Source: a virus (lineage: Duplodnaviria > Heunggongvirae > Uroviricota > Caudoviricetes). Taken from it: a stretch of DNA of 64,000 nt. Made by a program: the position numbers and the translations under genes. A model generated the notes under the pieces. It worked only from the letters and a program-made list of their open reading frames with translations, had not been told where the DNA came from and made no database searches. The number at the start of each line of letters is the position of its first letter. Positions within the stretch are counted from its first letter, which is position 1. This document shows positions 46,105 to 52,537 of the stretch, piece after piece. The DNA lies in the IMG/VR virus record IMGVR_UViG_3300045988_161152; one strand, given 5' to 3'.

Positions 46105-46611
46105 TTGAGTATTTTCAATAAACACGCACACCAGGAACGTCCGTACATCGTCATAGTAGATATTGATGGGACGATATCAGAGGCAACGGAAGACAGGCTG
46201 CATTTACTTCCACCACCTGGCAAAGGTGCATTAACAGAGCACTGGAACGAGTTTAACCTTGCCTGTGACACTGATGCTCCCATCACTCCAGTTATTGATA
46301 TGGTGCGCCAGTTGTCCGGCATTTACACCCTCTGGTTTGTAACCGGGCGCTGTGAGATAGCCAGGGATAAAACACGAGCCTGGTTGCGTAAGCACGTAAC
46401 AAATGGGGCTGAGCCTTTGCTATCTATGCGTCCTGCCACCGATGACAGAAATGACGGTCCAGCAAAGATTGATCTCCTTAAGAAAATTGGTCTAAGTAAA
46501 ATTGCGTTCGCGCTGGAAGATAAGATTGAAGTGGCGCGTGTATTCAGGAGGCACGGCGTGCTTACGTTAATGGTCAGGGAGTATGAAAACGCGCTTCTCC
46601 ATCAACAATAA
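46105..46611 (+). CDS. HAD-superfamily phosphatase-like protein
   Basis: TTG start with GAGGAGG SD; HAD motif I VIVDIDGT. Confidence 0.5.
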   Translation: MSIFNKHAHQERPYIVIVDIDGTISEATEDRLHLLPPPGKGALTEHWNEFNLACDTDAPITPVIDMVRQLSGIYTLWFVTGRCEIARDKTRAWLRKHVTNGAEPLLSMRPATDDRNDGPAKIDLLKKIGLSKIAFALEDKIEVARVFRRHGVLTLMVREYENALLHQQ

Positions 46612-46627
46612 TTGCTCTAATAAATAT
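46611..46627 (+). promoter_or_regulatory. C1 operator-like site ATTGCTCTAATAAATAT
   Basis: 16/17 match; overlaps stop codon of preceding gene. Confidence 0.6.
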
Positions 46628-46705
46628 TGATTTTTAAAACAGAGAAAGTGAAAATAAAAACATGCCGCAAGGCGCGGCATGTATCCAATCACAGGAGCTG
46701 AAAAT

Positions 46706-46792
46706 ATGAACACGGCATTCAAAATCATTATGGCCGCGATCTATTTCTGGCTGTTCTCTATCACTTTTGGCGGCATCGTCGCACATGGGTAA
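46706..46792 (+). CDS. small hydrophobic peptide (28 aa), not in ORF track
   Basis: AGGAG SD 8 nt upstream of ATG; MNTAFKIIMAAIYFWLFSITFGGIVAHG; ends 9 nt before next gene. Confidence 0.35.
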   Translation: MNTAFKIIMAAIYFWLFSITFGGIVAHG

Positions 46793-46801
46793 GGGGGATG
46801 C

Positions 46802-47389
46802 ATGAAAGGCGAAGTGAAAGAGCGCGGCATGATTTTTAACGATGAGATGGTCCGGGCAATTCTTGGCGGGAATAAAACACAGACTCGCAGGATTGTTGAA
46901 GAAAAATTCTATGGACGGGCAGTGGCCGCAGAGTTGCTTGCCAAGCATTGTCCATATGGTCAACCGGGCGATCGTATTTGGGTTCGCGAAACCTACCGGG
47001 TACATGGCAAAGCGACGGACGTCGCAACGCTGGTTTATCGCGCAAGCGTGCGTAACTCCTGGACAGAACAAACGCACCGGGTTCCGGTCGAGGTTTGTAA
47101 TAAACCAGTATCAGAAAAGTGGACGCCATCAATTCACATGCCGCGCTGGGCATCGCGCATTCTTCTGGAAATTACCAACGTGCGCGTTGAGCGGTTGAAC
47201 GATATCAGCGAATGCGATGCAAGGGCTGAGGGCGCACCAACAGAATCGACCCTCATTGGCGATAAGCATTACCCAAGTTTCCGTAGCCTATGGAAATCAA
47301 TTTATGGCGAAGATAGTTGGAACGCTAATCCTTGGGTGTGGGTAATCGAGTTTAAGCGTATTCAGGGGGCAACCAGTGAGCAAAATTAA
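46802..47389 (+). CDS. ASCH-domain protein
   Basis: AILGGNKTQTRR (ASCH motif ILxGxKTxExR) and C-terminal WVWVIEFKRI. Confidence 0.5.
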   Translation: MKGEVKERGMIFNDEMVRAILGGNKTQTRRIVEEKFYGRAVAAELLAKHCPYGQPGDRIWVRETYRVHGKATDVATLVYRASVRNSWTEQTHRVPVEVCNKPVSEKWTPSIHMPRWASRILLEITNVRVERLNDISECDARAEGAPTESTLIGDKHYPSFRSLWKSIYGEDSWNANPWVWVIEFKRIQGATSEQN

Positions 47390-48080
47390 CTATCAAGAAC
47401 TGCGCGAGGCGGCGGAACAGGCAACGCAAGATGAATGGGTAGCATATATTTTGCCGGGTCATAACGGCATTTATCCTGCGCGCACGTCTGAGGGTAGGCA
47501 TTGCGGATACTTTATTGACTGGCCTGGCATTGATGGACAAAGGAATGCTGGTGCCAATGCCCGTTATATCGCGGCTATCCCACCAAAAGTTGCGCTGGCG
47601 CTACTGGATAAAATTAAGCACCTGGAGGACACAAATATTGATGCCACATGCCGTATTGCGGAGTTTGAGACTAATCTCGCGGCGCTGGTGGCAGAGAACG
47701 CCGGGCTGAAACACGCAATGGCCGTAACTCTTGAGCATGTGTCGGTCACGGATGCAGGGCAGGCTGGTGTTGCTGCAATGATTATCAACGATGCCCTATA
47801 CCACAGCGAAACTCCAGCTACCGATGCTTTTCTGGCTGAAATTCGTGCGGAAGCACGCAACGAGGGGATTAACTATACCGCCAGCCGTCTTGCTGCTGCG
47901 TTCAATCACGGATTTATCAATAAGTCTTTGCGTGAAGTTTTCGACGTTACACGCATGATTTTGTCAGCGAAAGAAGAGTTGGCTAATGAAGCGCATCCGA
48001 TTGATGGCCTGTCTGGTGAATATGCGGAGAAATCCCTTGAAGAATGGGCGGAACAGATTCGCAAAGGAAGCAGCCAGTGA
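47376..48080 (+). CDS. paralog family member 1 (MSKINYQELREAAEQA...)
   Basis: Shares N-terminus, ATDAFLAEIRAE and C-terminal EEWAEQIRKGSSQ motifs with 48364..49077 and 49375..50064. Confidence 0.45.
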   Translation: MSKINYQELREAAEQATQDEWVAYILPGHNGIYPARTSEGRHCGYFIDWPGIDGQRNAGANARYIAAIPPKVALALLDKIKHLEDTNIDATCRIAEFETNLAALVAENAGLKHAMAVTLEHVSVTDAGQAGVAAMIINDALYHSETPATDAFLAEIRAEARNEGINYTASRLAAAFNHGFINKSLREVFDVTRMILSAKEELANEAHPIDGLSGEYAEKSLEEWAEQIRKGSSQ

Positions 48081-48367
48081 ATATCGACACGACAATAACG
48101 ATCGATACGCTCCTAAATACCGGTCTGGCACTTCTCGGTTGGCTTTACATCATGTCCCGTACATGGCGATGGCTGGGTTCCATTTTCCTAAAACAGTGGA
48201 AAAAACGGCGCAAACAGGAACTACGCCAGAAGGCATTAGAAGCGTTCTATGACGCATTTGAGCTTAGCCGCATTGAACCAGGTACAACAGCCAGGATAGC
48301 GACAAAAGGCGACCTGATGATAGTGATGTTCCGACAGGAGAGAGCAGAGAAAGGGGAATCAGCATGA
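48077..48367 (+). CDS. small membrane protein interleaved between paralogs
   Basis: GTG start overlapping upstream stop (GTGA); TM segment LALLGWLYIMS. Confidence 0.35.
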   Translation: MNIDTTITIDTLLNTGLALLGWLYIMSRTWRWLGSIFLKQWKKRRKQELRQKALEAFYDAFELSRIEPGTTARIATKGDLMIVMFRQERAEKGESA

Positions 48368-49077
48368 AATTTTCCAAATTTTCTGAGTTGGTGAATCGTA
48401 TTTTGTCCAACAACCACAGCCATCGTCGCGATATGGATGTAACAATCGTTGTTCATTCGCCTGGCAGCATTGGTTCAACACCTTCAGTTGAGGTTCAGTC
48501 AATTCACGCTGGTTTTGATTGGGATTCCGGGAAAGTGCTGATTTTCCCATCACAGCCACTGACCACGCTAACACCAGAACAGATTACTGATATCACTGAT
48601 AGTGTGCGCAAAGGTCAGTCTTGGCACGCATATCAGGAATACAAGAAGCATCAAGAGCAGTTGGAAAAATTGTCGATTGAACTGGATGCCGCAAAACAGC
48701 GCATTGCAGAGCTGGATGGTAATCGCACGGCGCTGGCAGTGGAGAATGCCTCAATGAAGCTGTTTATCAGGGGCTGTTGCTACGTGTTTGATGGCCAGCA
48801 GGATGAAATATCTGATGCGTATATCTGCGCAACAGACGGAGGGATGCCGCAAATTCCAGCCACCGACGCTTTCCTGGCTGAAGTTCGGGCGCAGGGGGTG
48901 GATGCTGCTATAGAAGCTGCAAAAAATCTGGTGGCCCAAGAATATGAGTATAAGGATTTCAAAGCGGCGCAGAGTGATTGCTGTATGCACCCTGGTTCAG
49001 ACCGGGTAGGGAAGGTTGAAATGACTGAGTGGTTAGTTGACTTTGCTGCCCAGCTTCGCAAAGGAGGCAACCAGTGA
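48364..49077 (+). CDS. paralog family member 2
   Basis: IPATDAFLAEVRAQG and WLVDFAAQLRKGGNQ shared with members 1 and 3. Confidence 0.45.
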   Translation: MKFSKFSELVNRILSNNHSHRRDMDVTIVVHSPGSIGSTPSVEVQSIHAGFDWDSGKVLIFPSQPLTTLTPEQITDITDSVRKGQSWHAYQEYKKHQEQLEKLSIELDAAKQRIAELDGNRTALAVENASMKLFIRGCCYVFDGQQDEISDAYICATDGGMPQIPATDAFLAEVRAQGVDAAIEAAKNLVAQEYEYKDFKAAQSDCCMHPGSDRVGKVEMTEWLVDFAAQLRKGGNQ

Positions 49078-49373
49078 CTGTATGTCTTATTGATAAACGT
49101 CGACGTGGGCAACAAATACCATCTGTTGAAATGCCGAATCACACATGGTTTTGCGTACTTGATATCGATGGTATGGATACGTTGGTTGACACTCGTCATT
49201 ACTGCGATACCGCAACAGCTACTCCGGCGAAAGCAAAGAAAATGGCTGCTCTGATAGAAAACTGGACTCCACCTGATGGTTGGTGCAATGGGAATGATCG
49301 AGATTGGCACGAAAAAATGAAGGGCTATATCTGCGATTTTTTACGTAAATGCAACGGCTTCAGGGTGATGTGA
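49074..49373 (+). CDS. small Cys-containing protein interleaved between paralogs
   Basis: 99-aa ORF translationally coupled on both sides. Confidence 0.3.
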   Translation: MTVCLIDKRRRGQQIPSVEMPNHTWFCVLDIDGMDTLVDTRHYCDTATATPAKAKKMAALIENWTPPDGWCNGNDRDWHEKMKGYICDFLRKCNGFRVM

Positions 49374-49374
49374 T

Positions 49375-50064
49375 ATGACCAAAATTAACTATCAGGCACT
49401 GCGTGAGGCGGCAGAACGTGCAATTCCGGCAATGGAACGCCTGTTAATGTTGCCAGTTGATGATGATCTGATAAGCGAACAGGAACTTAAAGATTACGGT
49501 GTGGATATTGATGCGCTCAACGCCTTCAAATTTCTGGCCGGACCAGAAACCGTGCTGGCACTGCTGGATGAACTGGAAAGAAACCAGCAATACATCAAAC
49601 GCCGTGACCAGGAGAACGAGGAAATTGCGCTAACGGTAGGGAGGCTTCGCGTTGAGCTGGAAGGCAAAGACAGCAAAATAGCCAATCTTACCGCCGAACG
49701 CGATGCTCTTCGTGAAGGTGAGATGGGCGACGCTAGGCATAGCAACACACGGGCCGCAGCTGATATCTACTTCCAACTGGTCGAGGAGTGCGAAATTCCT
49801 GCTGGCGGATCTCTGGTCGAGTACGTTGACGATATGCGCGAGAAGCTGGAAGCCGCAGAGAAGCGCATTGCAGAGTTAGAAAGTGGTTCTCAGGCACAAA
49901 AGTTAGTTGAAGCAATCATTGTTGCGATAGAAAACGAACAGGAAAGGCTTTTTGATGAAGATTACCTAATGGATTCGAAAGAATGCATTGACGTAATTCG
50001 TGAAGAAGTAAAGCGATGGAATGATTCCCGTGCCGCTGGCATTCGCATCAACGGAGGTGAGTAG
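49375..50064 (+). CDS. paralog family member 3 (MTKINYQALREAAERA...)
   Basis: N-terminus near-identical to member 1. Confidence 0.45.
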   Translation: MTKINYQALREAAERAIPAMERLLMLPVDDDLISEQELKDYGVDIDALNAFKFLAGPETVLALLDELERNQQYIKRRDQENEEIALTVGRLRVELEGKDSKIANLTAERDALREGEMGDARHSNTRAAADIYFQLVEECEIPAGGSLVEYVDDMREKLEAAEKRIAELESGSQAQKLVEAIIVAIENEQERLFDEDYLMDSKECIDVIREEVKRWNDSRAAGIRINGGE

Positions 50065-50239
50065 TGCGTGTGGCATGTATCGGCTTGTTACCGTACCCGA
50101 CTCGTTTTTGGGCTTCTGCGCTAATTGCAAAGCCACATGTCCTGATGGCTGACAACATCATCCCGGCACCAAAGCGCCGCCATACCGGTATTGCAGCGGC
50201 ACGACGAGCAGCAAAGAGACGCAGGAGAGCAAAGCGATG
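50064..50239 (+). CDS. small basic protein (58 aa), copy 1 of tandem triplet; not in ORF track
   Basis: GTG start after GGAGG SD; ends AARRAAKRRRRAKR; stop overlaps next ATG (ATGA). Confidence 0.35.
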
Positions 50240-50412
50240 AAAAACCGTAAGGCAAAACGACTTTTTTTACAGCGTCCTGTGCGTGTGGTGGAGCTGGTTA
50301 TTAGCAACCATAAGATAGCGGTACTCCATCCATTTGGTCAGGTGGCTTTTGCCGCAAAGCGTAAGCCTACTGCGTCACAGAACAGGCGGAAGAAAGGGTA
50401 CGCTGTAAGATG
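50236..50412 (+). CDS. small basic protein (58 aa), copy 2; not in ORF track
   Basis: MKNRKAKRLFLQRPVRVVEL...KRKPTASQNRRKKGYAVR. Confidence 0.4.
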
Positions 50413-50598
50413 AAAAACCGTAAAGCAAAGATTCTGTTAGTTCGTAGAAACGCTCCTGGCGTCTGGCAGTGGGTGAGACTCAGCAACCGACGGATGGGGT
50501 TGATGAAATATTACGGGATGATGGATTGTGGTTTTTGCAAAAAGCCCAGCGCGGCGCAAAACCGCTGGAAAAACCACTTGCGCACTAAAGGAGAGTGA
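50410..50598 (+). CDS. small basic protein (62 aa), copy 3
   Basis: MKNRKAKILLVRR...CGFCKKPSAAQNRWKNHLRTKGE; shares MKNRKAK start and C-terminal motif with copy 2. Confidence 0.4.
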   Translation: MKNRKAKILLVRRNAPGVWQWVRLSNRRMGLMKYYGMMDCGFCKKPSAAQNRWKNHLRTKGE

Positions 50599-50599
50599 T

Positions 50600-51115
50600 A
50601 TGGCGTTAACACACCGCGAACTCTGTCAGATTGCGTACAAGTTCCTTAAGCGCAACGGGTTCAAGGTTTGTTTTCATGACCGCTTTATAGCTGTAACCAG
50701 TACCGGAGAACAGCCAGATGCTATGGGATTCAGAAATTCAGCATCATGCCTGATAGAGGCGAAATGTTCTCGTGCTGACTTGTTGGCAGATAGAAAAAAG
50801 CGTTTTCGTAAAAATCCGTCTCTTGGAATGGGCGACTGGCGATTCTTTATTAGTGAGCCGGGAATTATTTCAATTGAGGATTTACCACCTGGCTGGGGAT
50901 TACTTCACGTTGTTAACGGAAGAGTACGGAAAGTACATGGGTGGCCCAAGGGTAATTGCTGTTGGGGTAATCCTGACGATAAGCCATTTACTGGAAATAA
51001 GCAGGTTGAATGCGATTACATGTTATCTGCATTAAGGCGTATGGAGTTGAGAGGGCACCTTAATGAAATATATGACGGTGTAATTGTTAATAAGAAAGAA
51101 GGAAACGCGGCATGA
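50600..51115 (+). CDS. PD-(D/E)XK nuclease-fold-like protein
   Basis: ATG 50600; PDAMGF...CLIEAKCS resembles a D...E-x-K core; weak. Confidence 0.35.
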   Translation: MALTHRELCQIAYKFLKRNGFKVCFHDRFIAVTSTGEQPDAMGFRNSASCLIEAKCSRADLLADRKKRFRKNPSLGMGDWRFFISEPGIISIEDLPPGWGLLHVVNGRVRKVHGWPKGNCCWGNPDDKPFTGNKQVECDYMLSALRRMELRGHLNEIYDGVIVNKKEGNAA

Positions 51116-52122
51116 CCACTATTGCCAAAGATCGACTACTGACAATCAAGCAGTGGCGCGAAACATACGGACCGGGTAGCAACGTTGTACTGCCAGCAGA
51201 AGAAGCGGAAGAACTGGCACGAATTGCTCTGGCATCGCTGGAAGCAGAGCCTGTTCTGTATCAGTCCTGCACTCGCCCCACTTGGAATAGCGGTGTTCCG
51301 TGGACGGAATGGAAAGAACGAAGTCGTGAGTGCTACGAAGACGATTTGCGCTTTACAGACACGCCTGACCATGCCGGTTGGATATACAAATGTCGAAAAT
51401 TATATACCACTCCGCCAGCGCCGATAGCGTTAGAGGCCATCGAAAACGCAATTGAATACATCCGCAGTATCGCTTTTCACATCGATGACGACGATTACCA
51501 CGGCAAACATATTGCGTATTTCATGCGACAAGCATTGGCCTGGCTGGAAGGGCATTCATGCAGCGACGACAGACTGGGTAAGGCCGACAATCAACCCGCA
51601 TCTGGTAACCAGGCTGCCGAATCCAATCGCGGTAATGAGTGGACCGGCAATCCTGATATTGATAACGCCATCATCATGCTCGACCGCATAGATACGGCGG
51701 AAAGTTGCGATGATGACCGTATTGAGGCCGTTAAGGCTGTGTTGCGTAGACTGGCAGGCAACTATCCGGATATTCCGGATAGTTCGGTGCCAGCGCCAGG
51801 AAAGGGCGTCACCGGTGAACGTATCCGCATTAAGCCGCATGTTTATCGCGAACTGGTTAACCGTCTCCACGATACAGCGATCAAGTGTGCTGGCACCCAG
51901 CAATTACGAGAAAGAATTAGCCGTGTTTTGGGCGACGTTATTACGCCATATCATCATAAACAAGCCGAGAAAAGCGGTCTGGAAAGGTGTCATCTTGAGG
52001 CAGCATTAAACATTAAGCCGGGGCATACGCTTGGCATTATTGATGCACTGTTGGTTCATAAGATGGCCAGGGCTTTATTGTCGTTGGTGGACGCTGGTGA
52101 TACAAGCGAGGGTGAAGTATGA
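51112..52122 (+). CDS. protein of unknown function (336 aa)
   Basis: Translationally coupled ORF. Confidence 0.3.
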   Translation: MTTIAKDRLLTIKQWRETYGPGSNVVLPAEEAEELARIALASLEAEPVLYQSCTRPTWNSGVPWTEWKERSRECYEDDLRFTDTPDHAGWIYKCRKLYTTPPAPIALEAIENAIEYIRSIAFHIDDDDYHGKHIAYFMRQALAWLEGHSCSDDRLGKADNQPASGNQAAESNRGNEWTGNPDIDNAIIMLDRIDTAESCDDDRIEAVKAVLRRLAGNYPDIPDSSVPAPGKGVTGERIRIKPHVYRELVNRLHDTAIKCAGTQQLRERISRVLGDVITPYHHKQAEKSGLERCHLEAALNIKPGHTLGIIDALLVHKMARALLSLVDAGDTSEGEV

Positions 52123-52481
52123 GAGTTGCAGATCACATCAAACACCTTGAAAGAATTATCGAAAACGGTGAACTCTTAAGAGATCAGATGAGACGCACGG
52201 CAGAAGCCAGGGAGGCGATAATCCGCAGTCAGGCTGGTAAATTAAAGCAATTGTCAGAGATTAACACGCTATACAAGAACAGACGTAACCGGGCGGTGAT
52301 GCGGCTTCAGAAAGCACGTAATGAAATTAAATTGGTGGAGGCAAAACTGAAAAAACAGATCCAGCGTTACGATCAGCAAGATGCTTTTTATGCCGCCATC
52401 AAGGCGGCTGCTAATGAAATAGGCATCTGGAAGTTGCTGGTGGAGAAAGCAAAGACGAAGTTAAATGCCAACGAAAGCTGA
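52119..52481 (+). CDS. coiled-coil protein of unknown function (120 aa), last gene of early operon
   Basis: Heptad-rich, basic. Confidence 0.3.
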   Translation: MRVADHIKHLERIIENGELLRDQMRRTAEAREAIIRSQAGKLKQLSEINTLYKNRRNRAVMRLQKARNEIKLVEAKLKKQIQRYDQQDAFYAAIKAAANEIGIWKLLVEKAKTKLNANES

Positions 52482-52537
52482 ACTACAGGTGCCCACCAGC
52501 ACATACAGAAAATGATTGTTTCCACATCAAGGAGATT

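Follow-up and report, generated by a model that had tools for sequence, protein, structure and literature searches.

Introduction

Ea22 of lambda and Shiga-toxin (Stx) phages is transcribed very early, and its deletion speeds induction and raises progeny, a pro-lysogenic effect that is the sole experimental phenotype of the family (PMC7093339, PMC10834534). It forms a tetramer in which the C-terminal domain (CTD) is dimeric, and these domains vary (PMC7093339, PMC10834534); its plan comprises a short N-terminal region, a long central coiled coil and the separate variable CTD (PMC10834534). A C-terminal basic-Gly-Glu motif ('+GE') is also described, of which the significance is unknown in the literature (PMC7093339). 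Here we analyse a 64,000-nucleotide stretch of a caudoviricete (IMG/VR record IMGVR_UViG_3300045988_161152; 'the window' means this whole stretch), in which three open reading frames (ORFs) of about 230 amino acids (aa), E1 to E3, are separated by small coupled ORFs and followed by three short basic ORFs, S1 to S3. A preliminary description saw here two tandemly triplicated gene families in a C1-operated early operon, serially duplicated and diverged under host-defence pressure.

The locus corresponds to 'variable region 8' of P1-like phage-plasmids, between pmgT and humD (PMC9603915), and the P1 genes pmgT, pmgU and pmgV found there are non-essential by CRISPR interference (PMC10695390). Our result is mostly a correction: the apparent pair of triplicated families is a known but poorly understood protein family, Ead/Ea22, in a known hypervariable slot, accompanied by small basic genes that some annotations miss. 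Beyond annotation, we read the '+GE' tail as the place where the following gene has its ribosome-binding site and overlapping start, and also as a recombination joint.

A C1-controlled operon in a P1-like phage-plasmid

Positions 46600-51200 of the window are 100% identical to several E. coli plasmids of about 96 kb typed as IncY or p0111-like, that is, P1-like phage-plasmids, and the sequence on either side agrees with P1, P7, JL22 and further Punavirus genomes at 95-99%. Directly after pap, a C1 operator with a single mismatch to the 17-bp asymmetric ATTGCTCTAATAAATTT takes the same position as its annotated P1 and P7 equivalents (Table 1). It abuts a sigma-70 promoter-like site (9/12 matches in a consensus scan) at the place where the promoters P1pmgT and P2pmgT are annotated in P1, and thus reproduces the arrangement of a P1 C1-controlled operon, with an operator overlapping the promoter upstream of the first gene.

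Twelve same-strand ORFs follow, from 46802 to 52481, and every junction combines a Shine-Dalgarno (SD)-like sequence with overlapping or abutting stop and start codons (GTGA, ATGA, TAGTG or TGAtATG). No strong plus-strand terminator was found by scanning 46640-52500, where the two terminator-like sites, at 47452 and 52017, are weak (stems of 5-6 pairs, poor T tails). Promoter and terminator scans gave no strong internal signal and an Rfam scan no RNA element. The early operon under C1 proposed at the outset is therefore real, and the stretch is cargo of a C1-repressed, translationally coupled pmgT-type operon in a P1-like phage-plasmid. Elsewhere in the window, three tRNA genes (Asn, Thr, Met-anticodon) at 31470-33326 and 15 C1-operator-like sites spanning 11574-63868 (0.18 expected) are consistent with a P1-type genome.

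E1 to E3 as a mosaic Ead/Ea22 family

E1 and E3 score 89 and 97.6 bits against PF13935 (Ead_Ea22), well above the gathering cutoff of 27 bits, and their predicted plan of head, coiled coil and variable CTD is that of Ea22 of lambda and the Stx phages 933W and Phi24B and of Ead of P22. E2 lacks the canonical head and has no Pfam match; it is tied to Ead/Ea22 through phrog_368, which is matched by E1 (6e-68), E2 (1.6e-75) and also E3, and through its BLASTP similarity to E1. In RefSeq, E1 (WP_042198324) is annotated as ead/Ea22-like. The three genes are paralogous, as had been supposed, with 26% identity over 172 aa between E1 and E2 (E=2e-8) and 32% over the first 82 aa between E1 and E3 (E=6e-7), while E2 and E3 align only along the coiled-coil stretch (E=0.002).

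The shared head, hinge and tail on which the triplication had been founded do exist, but each is common to only two of the three genes. The head MxKINYQ.LREAAE occurs in E1 and E3, E2 starting instead with MKFSKFSELVNR; the hinge ATDAFLAE(I/V)RA and the tail RKG(S/G)(S/N)Q belong to E1 and E2, E3 ending in GIRINGGE. At the DNA level, repeats of 48 nt (85%), 41 nt (85%), 27 nt (89%) and 21 nt (95%) are far above chance, and Tandem Repeats Finder detected no tandem repeat. The small ORFs between the paralogs are present as described and encode the mutually unrelated DUF4752 and DUF7739 proteins.

E3 is of the lambda type; it is 53% identical to lambda Ea22 over the first 102 aa (E=3e-26), i.e. 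the head and the first part of the coiled coil, and has a homologous 3' end, whereas its CTD differs. The CTDs here are unrelated to the solved lambda CTD, and searches of PDB sequences with E1, E2, E3, the E2 N-domain, the downstream 171-aa protein and an S-family profile returned only noise. A weak PDB hit of E2 to a 'multi-ubiquitin domain' protein (0.015) was dropped when it fell to 0.25 with the N-domain searched alone. The AlphaFold2 (AF2) model of E2 has an N-domain (1-82), a helix (87-138, predicted local distance difference test score, pLDDT, of about 80), a disordered linker and a helical CTD; its mean pLDDT is only 54 because the alignment held near-identical homologs only, and it was too poor for a fold search.

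The alignment and module map of E1 to E3 agree with the three-part plan of Ea22. On sequence grounds, the three are one mosaic Ead/Ea22 family with the predicted modules head peptide, variable N-domain, coiled coil, hinge, variable CTD and short tail. Their position in an early operon among accessory genes of the exo-xis or 'ea' type fits the family as well, since the same cassettes are found in the exo-xis interval of 933W and of lambdoid prophages. Two differences from the lambda and Stx situation are that three copies stand here in place of one and that the host element is a C1-controlled P1-like phage-plasmid, not a lambdoid pL operon.

Probable module swapping rather than local triplication

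Serial duplication in situ would leave neighbours as each other's closest relatives, together with residual tandem DNA repeats, and neither was found. For every module, a counterpart with 81-100% identity exists in another P1-like or Stx/lambdoid phage, compared with the 26-32% between neighbouring genes. Because the nearest relative of each module resides in other phages, the array points to module swapping with lambda-like phages and not to local triplication. Moreover, cassettes of P1-like phage-plasmids and of Stx or other lambdoid phages share 93-99% DNA identity, and have therefore been exchanged recently across very different phage types.

In blastn comparisons, similarity to other elements starts or stops at 47380, the gene junction where homology to P7 and JL22 ends, and at the hinges (47849 and 48851-48902). 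Further segment ends fall at 49661, where the conserved ERNQQYIKRRDQENE..LRVELE core of E3 finishes, at 50028-50049 in the E3 tail and at 50581 in the S3 tail. Judged from these positions, the shared motifs noticed earlier are module boundaries, and the likeness of E1 to E3 to one another is limited to these. Individual relatives illustrate the exchange: the Ro157c2 copy of E1 has an N-domain of 58% identity followed by 149 codons at 98%, its copy of E2 is 99% identical over the first 175 residues and then carries an unrelated, replaced CTD, and in an Stx2c phage the first Ea22 gene is chimeric, joining an E1-like N-part and coiled coil, up to the hinge, to the CTD of E2 (97% nucleotide identity).

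Mosaicism also governs how selection can be read. The ratio of non-synonymous to synonymous substitution rates (dN/dS) between paralogs, which had been proposed as a check, is meaningless at 26-32% identity, and whole-gene values between 'orthologs' (0.35 and 0.67) were rejected as misleading for mosaic genes. Calculated module by module, dN/dS of the alignable parts is 0.14-0.5, i.e. they are under purifying and not positive selection; diversifying selection on point substitutions was not seen in the modules or in the S genes (0.06-0.65). The non-alignable segments, only 14-30% identical, look like module replacements.

The recombination of lambdoid mosaics at 'boundary sequences' is classical phage modular evolution, and the present locus is alike in that similarity to other phages starts or stops at short conserved sequences on gene and domain borders. 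It departs from that scheme in two respects: the boundary at the gene end is also the SD sequence and start of the next gene, and further boundaries, the head and the hinge, lie inside coding sequence. Such short conserved sequences probably serve as sites of homologous recombination between co-resident phages, which swaps domains and adds or removes whole genes without local duplication and subsequent divergence by point mutation. Among the homologs collected, three (P0001, P0049, P0017) have the first 20-50 or so residues of an Ea22 protein fused to an S3-type protein and represent further recombinants between gene types.

Conserved tails as proposed translational junctions

A survey of gene ends covered 11 elements, with 20 Ea22-family genes plus S3, and in all 21 the type of tail tracks the downstream gene. 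Tail DNA ...CGCAAAGGARGCARCCAGTGA, encoding RKG[GS][NS]Q before the stop codon, precedes a gene that starts at the GTG of GTGA and encodes DUF4752, DUF7739 or another Ea22 protein (VSKIDYQ...). Tail DNA ...GGAGGTGAGTA(G/A)TG, encoding a terminal GIRI[KN]GGE (GIRIKRGE in 933W), is followed by S1, and ...AAAGGAGAGTGAtATG, encoding a terminal IKGE (TKGE in S3), by the gene for the 171-aa protein. In the window, tail, SD sequence and stop/start overlap fall on the same nucleotides at 48054-48080, 49051-49077, 50040-50066 and 50575-50602; the codons of the Ea22 tail are AAAGGAGG, and the tail DNA includes AGGAGG.

The conserved tail thus seems to be kept mainly as ribosome-binding site and stop/start overlap of the next gene, which would explain the '+GE' motif. 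A strict basic-Gly-Glu ending was not found in E1 to E3 (NGGE as a variant in E3, KGSSQ in E1, KGGNQ in E2); the motif is a poor criterion for the family and tracks the ribosome-binding site of the downstream gene instead. In lambda (L014, 1040-1075), the sequence for IKGE and its TGA stop is kept as a relic with the downstream gene gone. Phage TL-2011b joins a hybrid tail, KLRKGGE, to S1, which implies a crossover inside the SD sequence.

The same logic extends to the first operon gene. The 3' end of the upf86.8-type gene forms a portable junction, CAACCAGTGAG, in P7, JL22 and the window, and the gene that begins at its GTG is upf87.4 in P7 and JL22 and E1 in the window. Shared heads and tails might therefore offer a simple recombination route for the gain or loss of genes.

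The small basic genes S1 to S3

The three basic ORFs, joined by overlapping stop and start codons as first described, encode proteins of 58, 58 and 62 aa with isoelectric points (pI) of 11.3-12.0, the highest being that of S1 (12.0). They are not a triplicated family. S2 and S3 are 37% identical (E=5e-10), match phrog_1380 and share the MKNRKAK start, while S1 has no such motif, does not align with S2 and belongs to the separate phrog_13831. The supposed period of 174 bp is a start-to-start spacing of 173 nt, again without a tandem repeat. The two triplicated families thus give way to one mosaic three-member family, one two-member family and an unrelated basic ORF. No function, structure or name is attached to either PHROG, both of which consist of small enterobacterial phage proteins.

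All three look protein-coding from their substitution patterns. When S1 is compared with a 76%-identical variant, its ratio of non-synonymous to synonymous polymorphism (pN/pS) comes to 0.43 in the frame annotated and to about 1 in both others; a 3-nt indel leaves the reading frame intact, and the other frames contain stops. S2 differs from its TL-2011b copy by five synonymous changes and one non-synonymous change, and S3 variants, in a protein-guided alignment, have a pN/pS of 0.53-0.64 in the coding frame as against 0.84 or more in the others. These genes have been overlooked in part: the 933W reference annotation lacks S1 and S3, and the identical plasmids have neither S1 nor S2 in their gene tables. 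In the 933W stretch L018, S1 (3500-3655, 51 aa) and S3 (3652-3840) lie unannotated directly after ea22; the next annotated gene starts at a GTG inside S3 in another frame (MVFAKSPAR...), and the same frame is open in the window from 50528.

The order S1-S3 or S1-S2-S3 recurs in a P1-like phage, TL-2011b, 933W and lambdoid prophages, and with a single exception among the loci examined the cassette stands directly 3' of an Ea22 gene. The S genes thus accompany the lambda-type Ea22 gene; 933W resembles the window in having ea22 and the same S1 and S3 genes in an early operon. S2 is conserved at 98-100% across the four examined elements that carry it, while S3 varies, and the S2/S3 pair is accordingly old. 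The MKNRKAK family comprises 60 clusters at 90% identity, of which the sources naming an organism give only Escherichia or Salmonella; at the 50% level, there are 48 clusters in a set of 1.84 billion representatives. Two multi-repeat matches (P0193, P0214) that resemble translations of repetitive DNA were left out. The ends of the family are invariant (MKNRKAK.L ... QNRWKNHLRTKGE) and the middle is variable, diverged members retaining R(I/V)SNR and SA.QNR.

The AF2 model of S3 (pLDDT 68) has an alpha-beta3-alpha topology for which Foldseek gave no PDB match below E=1, and no fold or family match was obtained for the S family as a whole. A derivation of the S proteins from the Ea22 N-domain was dropped after a profile-profile comparison of the family with E2 found nothing. 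Judged by charge, the S proteins are probably nucleic-acid binders, an assignment of low confidence.

Some peculiarities of S3 deserve mention. All three frames are open over about 50528-50588, and in two rare variants (P0054, P0060) the middle is read in an alternative frame (GETQQPTDGV...), the normal frame being regained before the conserved end (window 50469-50588). The 230-aa phrog_9263 matches S3 in its first 61 positions and the 171-aa protein in the rest, and therefore the two form one fused protein in some phages. Deletion of the T from the TGA stop of S3 would join both genes in frame (50410-51115).

Copy number and the variable slot

Ea22-family genes in the equivalent slot of relatives range from zero to four. 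P1, with pmgT, pmgU and pmgV only, has none, and neither have two plasmids in which the slot is taken up by a type I hsdRSM system on the opposite strand; P7 has one, as has JL22 (next to a DNA methyltransferase), Ro157c2 and MH422554 have two each, the window three and NZ_CP103469 four. A fixed copy number in all relatives, which the preliminary description had named as evidence against its own reading, is thus not what the comparison gives. Among lambdoid phages, lambda and 933W have one copy and the Stx2c phage three. Wherever there are several, in the P1-like slot and in the Stx2c phage, genes of the E1/E2 type come first and the lambda type last. The exact arrangement of the window is found, over at least 80% of its length, in 9 of about 1,300 matching PLSDB records.

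P7 (upf88.3) and JL22 (ra22) share with the window the location after pap and the C1 operator, the flanking upf86.8, upf89.0, EaA/pmgU and pmgV genes and the lambda-type head, but their single Ea22 gene comes without S genes. Other cargo of the slot includes methyltransferases, a PAPS-reductase-family gene, DUF551, DUF968 and ASCH, and the ORFs are intact in every element examined. The slot is hypervariable, as already known, and is filled here with genes of the exo-xis or 'ea' early-region type of lambdoid, including Stx, phages.

In some P1-like plasmids (L016, 7007-13000; L017, 9774-15833), hsdR, hsdS and hsdM fill the whole slot between pap and phd/doc on the opposite strand. The JL22 Ea22 protein (L006, 11930-12562) has a CTD in which a Walker-A-like GFTGCGKS is visible by eye; Pfam assigns only the Ead_Ea22 N-part.

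What the array might do

We favour, with a probability of roughly 0.6, that the array is mosaic, module-swapped Ea22-family cargo of which the early coiled-coil adaptors bias the lysis-lysogeny decision through exchangeable end domains. Upon infection or inactivation of C1, the 12 coupled genes would be made together. By analogy with lambda and Stx Ea22, E1 to E3 might then assemble into coiled-coil oligomers that present their exchangeable end domains to host or phage partners and thereby bias the outcome. The present analysis itself shows the operon structure, the family membership, the mosaicism, the purifying selection within modules, the coding status of S1 to S3 and the variation in copy number; oligomeric state, partners and phenotype are inferred. 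Several points weigh against this view. The lambda phenotype may not transfer, given that N- and C-terminal domains differ, and yeast two-hybrid screens gave no partner for lambda Ea22 (PMC10834534). For E2, the three-part architecture is firm in the model only at the central helix. The conservation of head and hinge could reflect protein function instead of, or besides, recombination, and dN/dS values are rough on short, partly saturated segments, with protein-guided alignment favouring the annotated frame.

The host-defence pressure invoked originally implies that the paralogs are anti-restriction or anti-defence proteins, each copy neutralising a different system early in infection. Early, repressor-controlled expression, variable copy number, exchangeable end domains and the acidity of the E proteins (pI 4.5-5.2) would suit such a role, as would the company they keep: relatives carry DNA methyltransferases, a PAPS-reductase-family gene or a whole type I restriction-modification (R-M) system in the slot, and lambdoid copies adjoin Dam and DndB-like genes. 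Yet Pfam, PHROGs and NCBIfam returned no named family other than Ead_Ea22, DUF4752 and DUF7739 and PADLOC returned none (no library dedicated to anti-defence was searched), and we found nothing in the literature that links Ea22 or the exo-xis region to anti-defence. The purifying selection on the modules, the pro-lysogenic nature of the only measured phenotype (PMC7093339) and the entire absence of the genes from P1 argue in the same direction. We regard this explanation as unlikely, and retain it at that level because of the slot company and the pace of module turnover. Slightly more doubtful still is a bolder version in which Ea22 is a plug-and-play conflict system, with exchangeable N- and C-terminal 'warheads' on a conserved coiled-coil scaffold, each binding a different host-defence or rival-phage factor. 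With two to four such genes in an array, whose products might assemble into mixed oligomers and act together with the linked basic S proteins, a phage-plasmid passing among many Enterobacteriaceae would widen its range, and the pro-lysogenic phenotype in lambda would be incidental to the disarming of an abortive-infection or stress pathway. Should the family prove to counter host defences, new inhibitors could usefully be sought in its modular arrays.

Recombination at portable junctions might also keep inserting and deleting lambdoid early-region cassettes that have no selected role. The junction sequences suffice to explain insertion without any function, the genes vary from four copies to total absence in P1 or replacement by R-M, and the P1 genes of the slot are dispensable. 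Neutral passengers would hardly show modules with dN/dS of 0.14-0.5, ORFs that stay intact throughout, an exact E2 sequence on 515 contigs or the synonymous excess of S2, and deletions of ea22 in lambda and Stx phages have phenotypes (PMC7093339), all of which makes this account improbable. Least probable of all, and by our estimate very unlikely, is a protection of the lysogen by prophage-encoded defence or superinfection exclusion against other phages. It would fit the type I R-M system in the slot of some relatives and the improved host survival after infection conferred by Ea22 (PMC7093339, PMC10834534), but an operon behind a C1 operator should be off in the lysogen, the R-M genes of the relatives lie on the opposite strand outside C1 control, and PADLOC again gave no match.

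Table 1. Features of the pmgT-type operon and its cargo (positions in the window; SD, Shine-Dalgarno sequence)
Feature	Position	Strand	Basis
Sigma-70 promoter-like site	46583..46612	+	consensus scan
C1 repressor operator, equivalent to P1 Op88/OpmgT and P7 Op(hea)	46611..46627	+	16/17 to ATTGCTCTAATAAATTT
First operon gene, upf86.8-like, partial homolog of P1 pmgT	46802..47389	+	phrog_874; 98% to P7 upf86.8, 47% to P1 pmgT
Junction sequence AGGGGGCAACCAGTGA (SD and E1 GTG start)	47364..47379	+	direct repeat family D6; copies 48065-48080, 49062-49077
E1, Ead/Ea22-family, 234 aa: canonical head and N-domain, coiled coil, PATDAFLAE hinge, CTD, RKGSSQ tail	47376..48080	+	PF13935, phrog_368
Conserved Ea22 'head' DNA, repeat D1	47377..47424	+	second copy 49376-49423, 85%
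Hinge DNA encoding PATDAFLAE(I/V)RA, crossover point, repeat D3	47809..47849	+	second copy 48851-48891, 85%
DUF4752 small protein, 96 aa; GTG start within GTGA stop overlap of E1	48077..48367	+	PF15944 2.4e-42; RefSeq start
E2, divergent Ea22-family, 237 aa: non-canonical N-domain phrog_6026, coiled coil, PATDAFLAE hinge, CTD, RKGGNQ tail	48364..49077	+	phrog_368
DUF7739 small protein, 99 aa; GTG start in GTGA overlap with E2	49074..49373	+	PF24881 1.5e-21
E3, lambda-type Ea22, 229 aa: canonical head, ERNQQYIKRRDQENE coiled-coil start, unrelated CTD, GIRINGGE tail	49375..50064	+	PF13935
S1, 58-aa basic protein, arginine-rich C-terminal tail	50064..50240	+	phrog_13831 8.6e-42
S2, 58-aa basic protein, MKNRKAK family	50237..50413	+	phrog_1380
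S3, 62-aa basic protein, MKNRKAK family; tail TKGE carries SD of next gene	50410..50598	+	phrog_1380 1e-40; RefSeq WP_000797279
171-aa protein, equivalent to P7 upf89.0	50600..51115	+	100% to P7 upf89.0; phrog_9263, phrog_631
EaA-like protein; C-terminal third is P1 pmgU region	51112..52122	+	tblastn to P1, P7, JL22; annotated EaA in JL22 and MH422554
pmgV, last coupled gene	52119..52481	+	97-100% to pmgV of P1 and P7

Neighbouring genes

Among the genes that accompany the array, DUF4752 is one for which we found no paper. In the 171-aa protein downstream of S3, inspection by eye shows a D..EAK motif, which might be the signature of a PD-(D/E)XK nuclease; the protein has no Pfam or PDB match. 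Its labels are inconsistent: it is a minor tail protein in the P7 RefSeq record, and for plasmid pLAO38, which is 100% identical, only a shorter version of 111 aa is listed. In lambdoid prophages with the same Ea22/S cassette (L010-L012, 1832-2896), a Dam methyltransferase or a DndB-like protein is encoded after orf60a.

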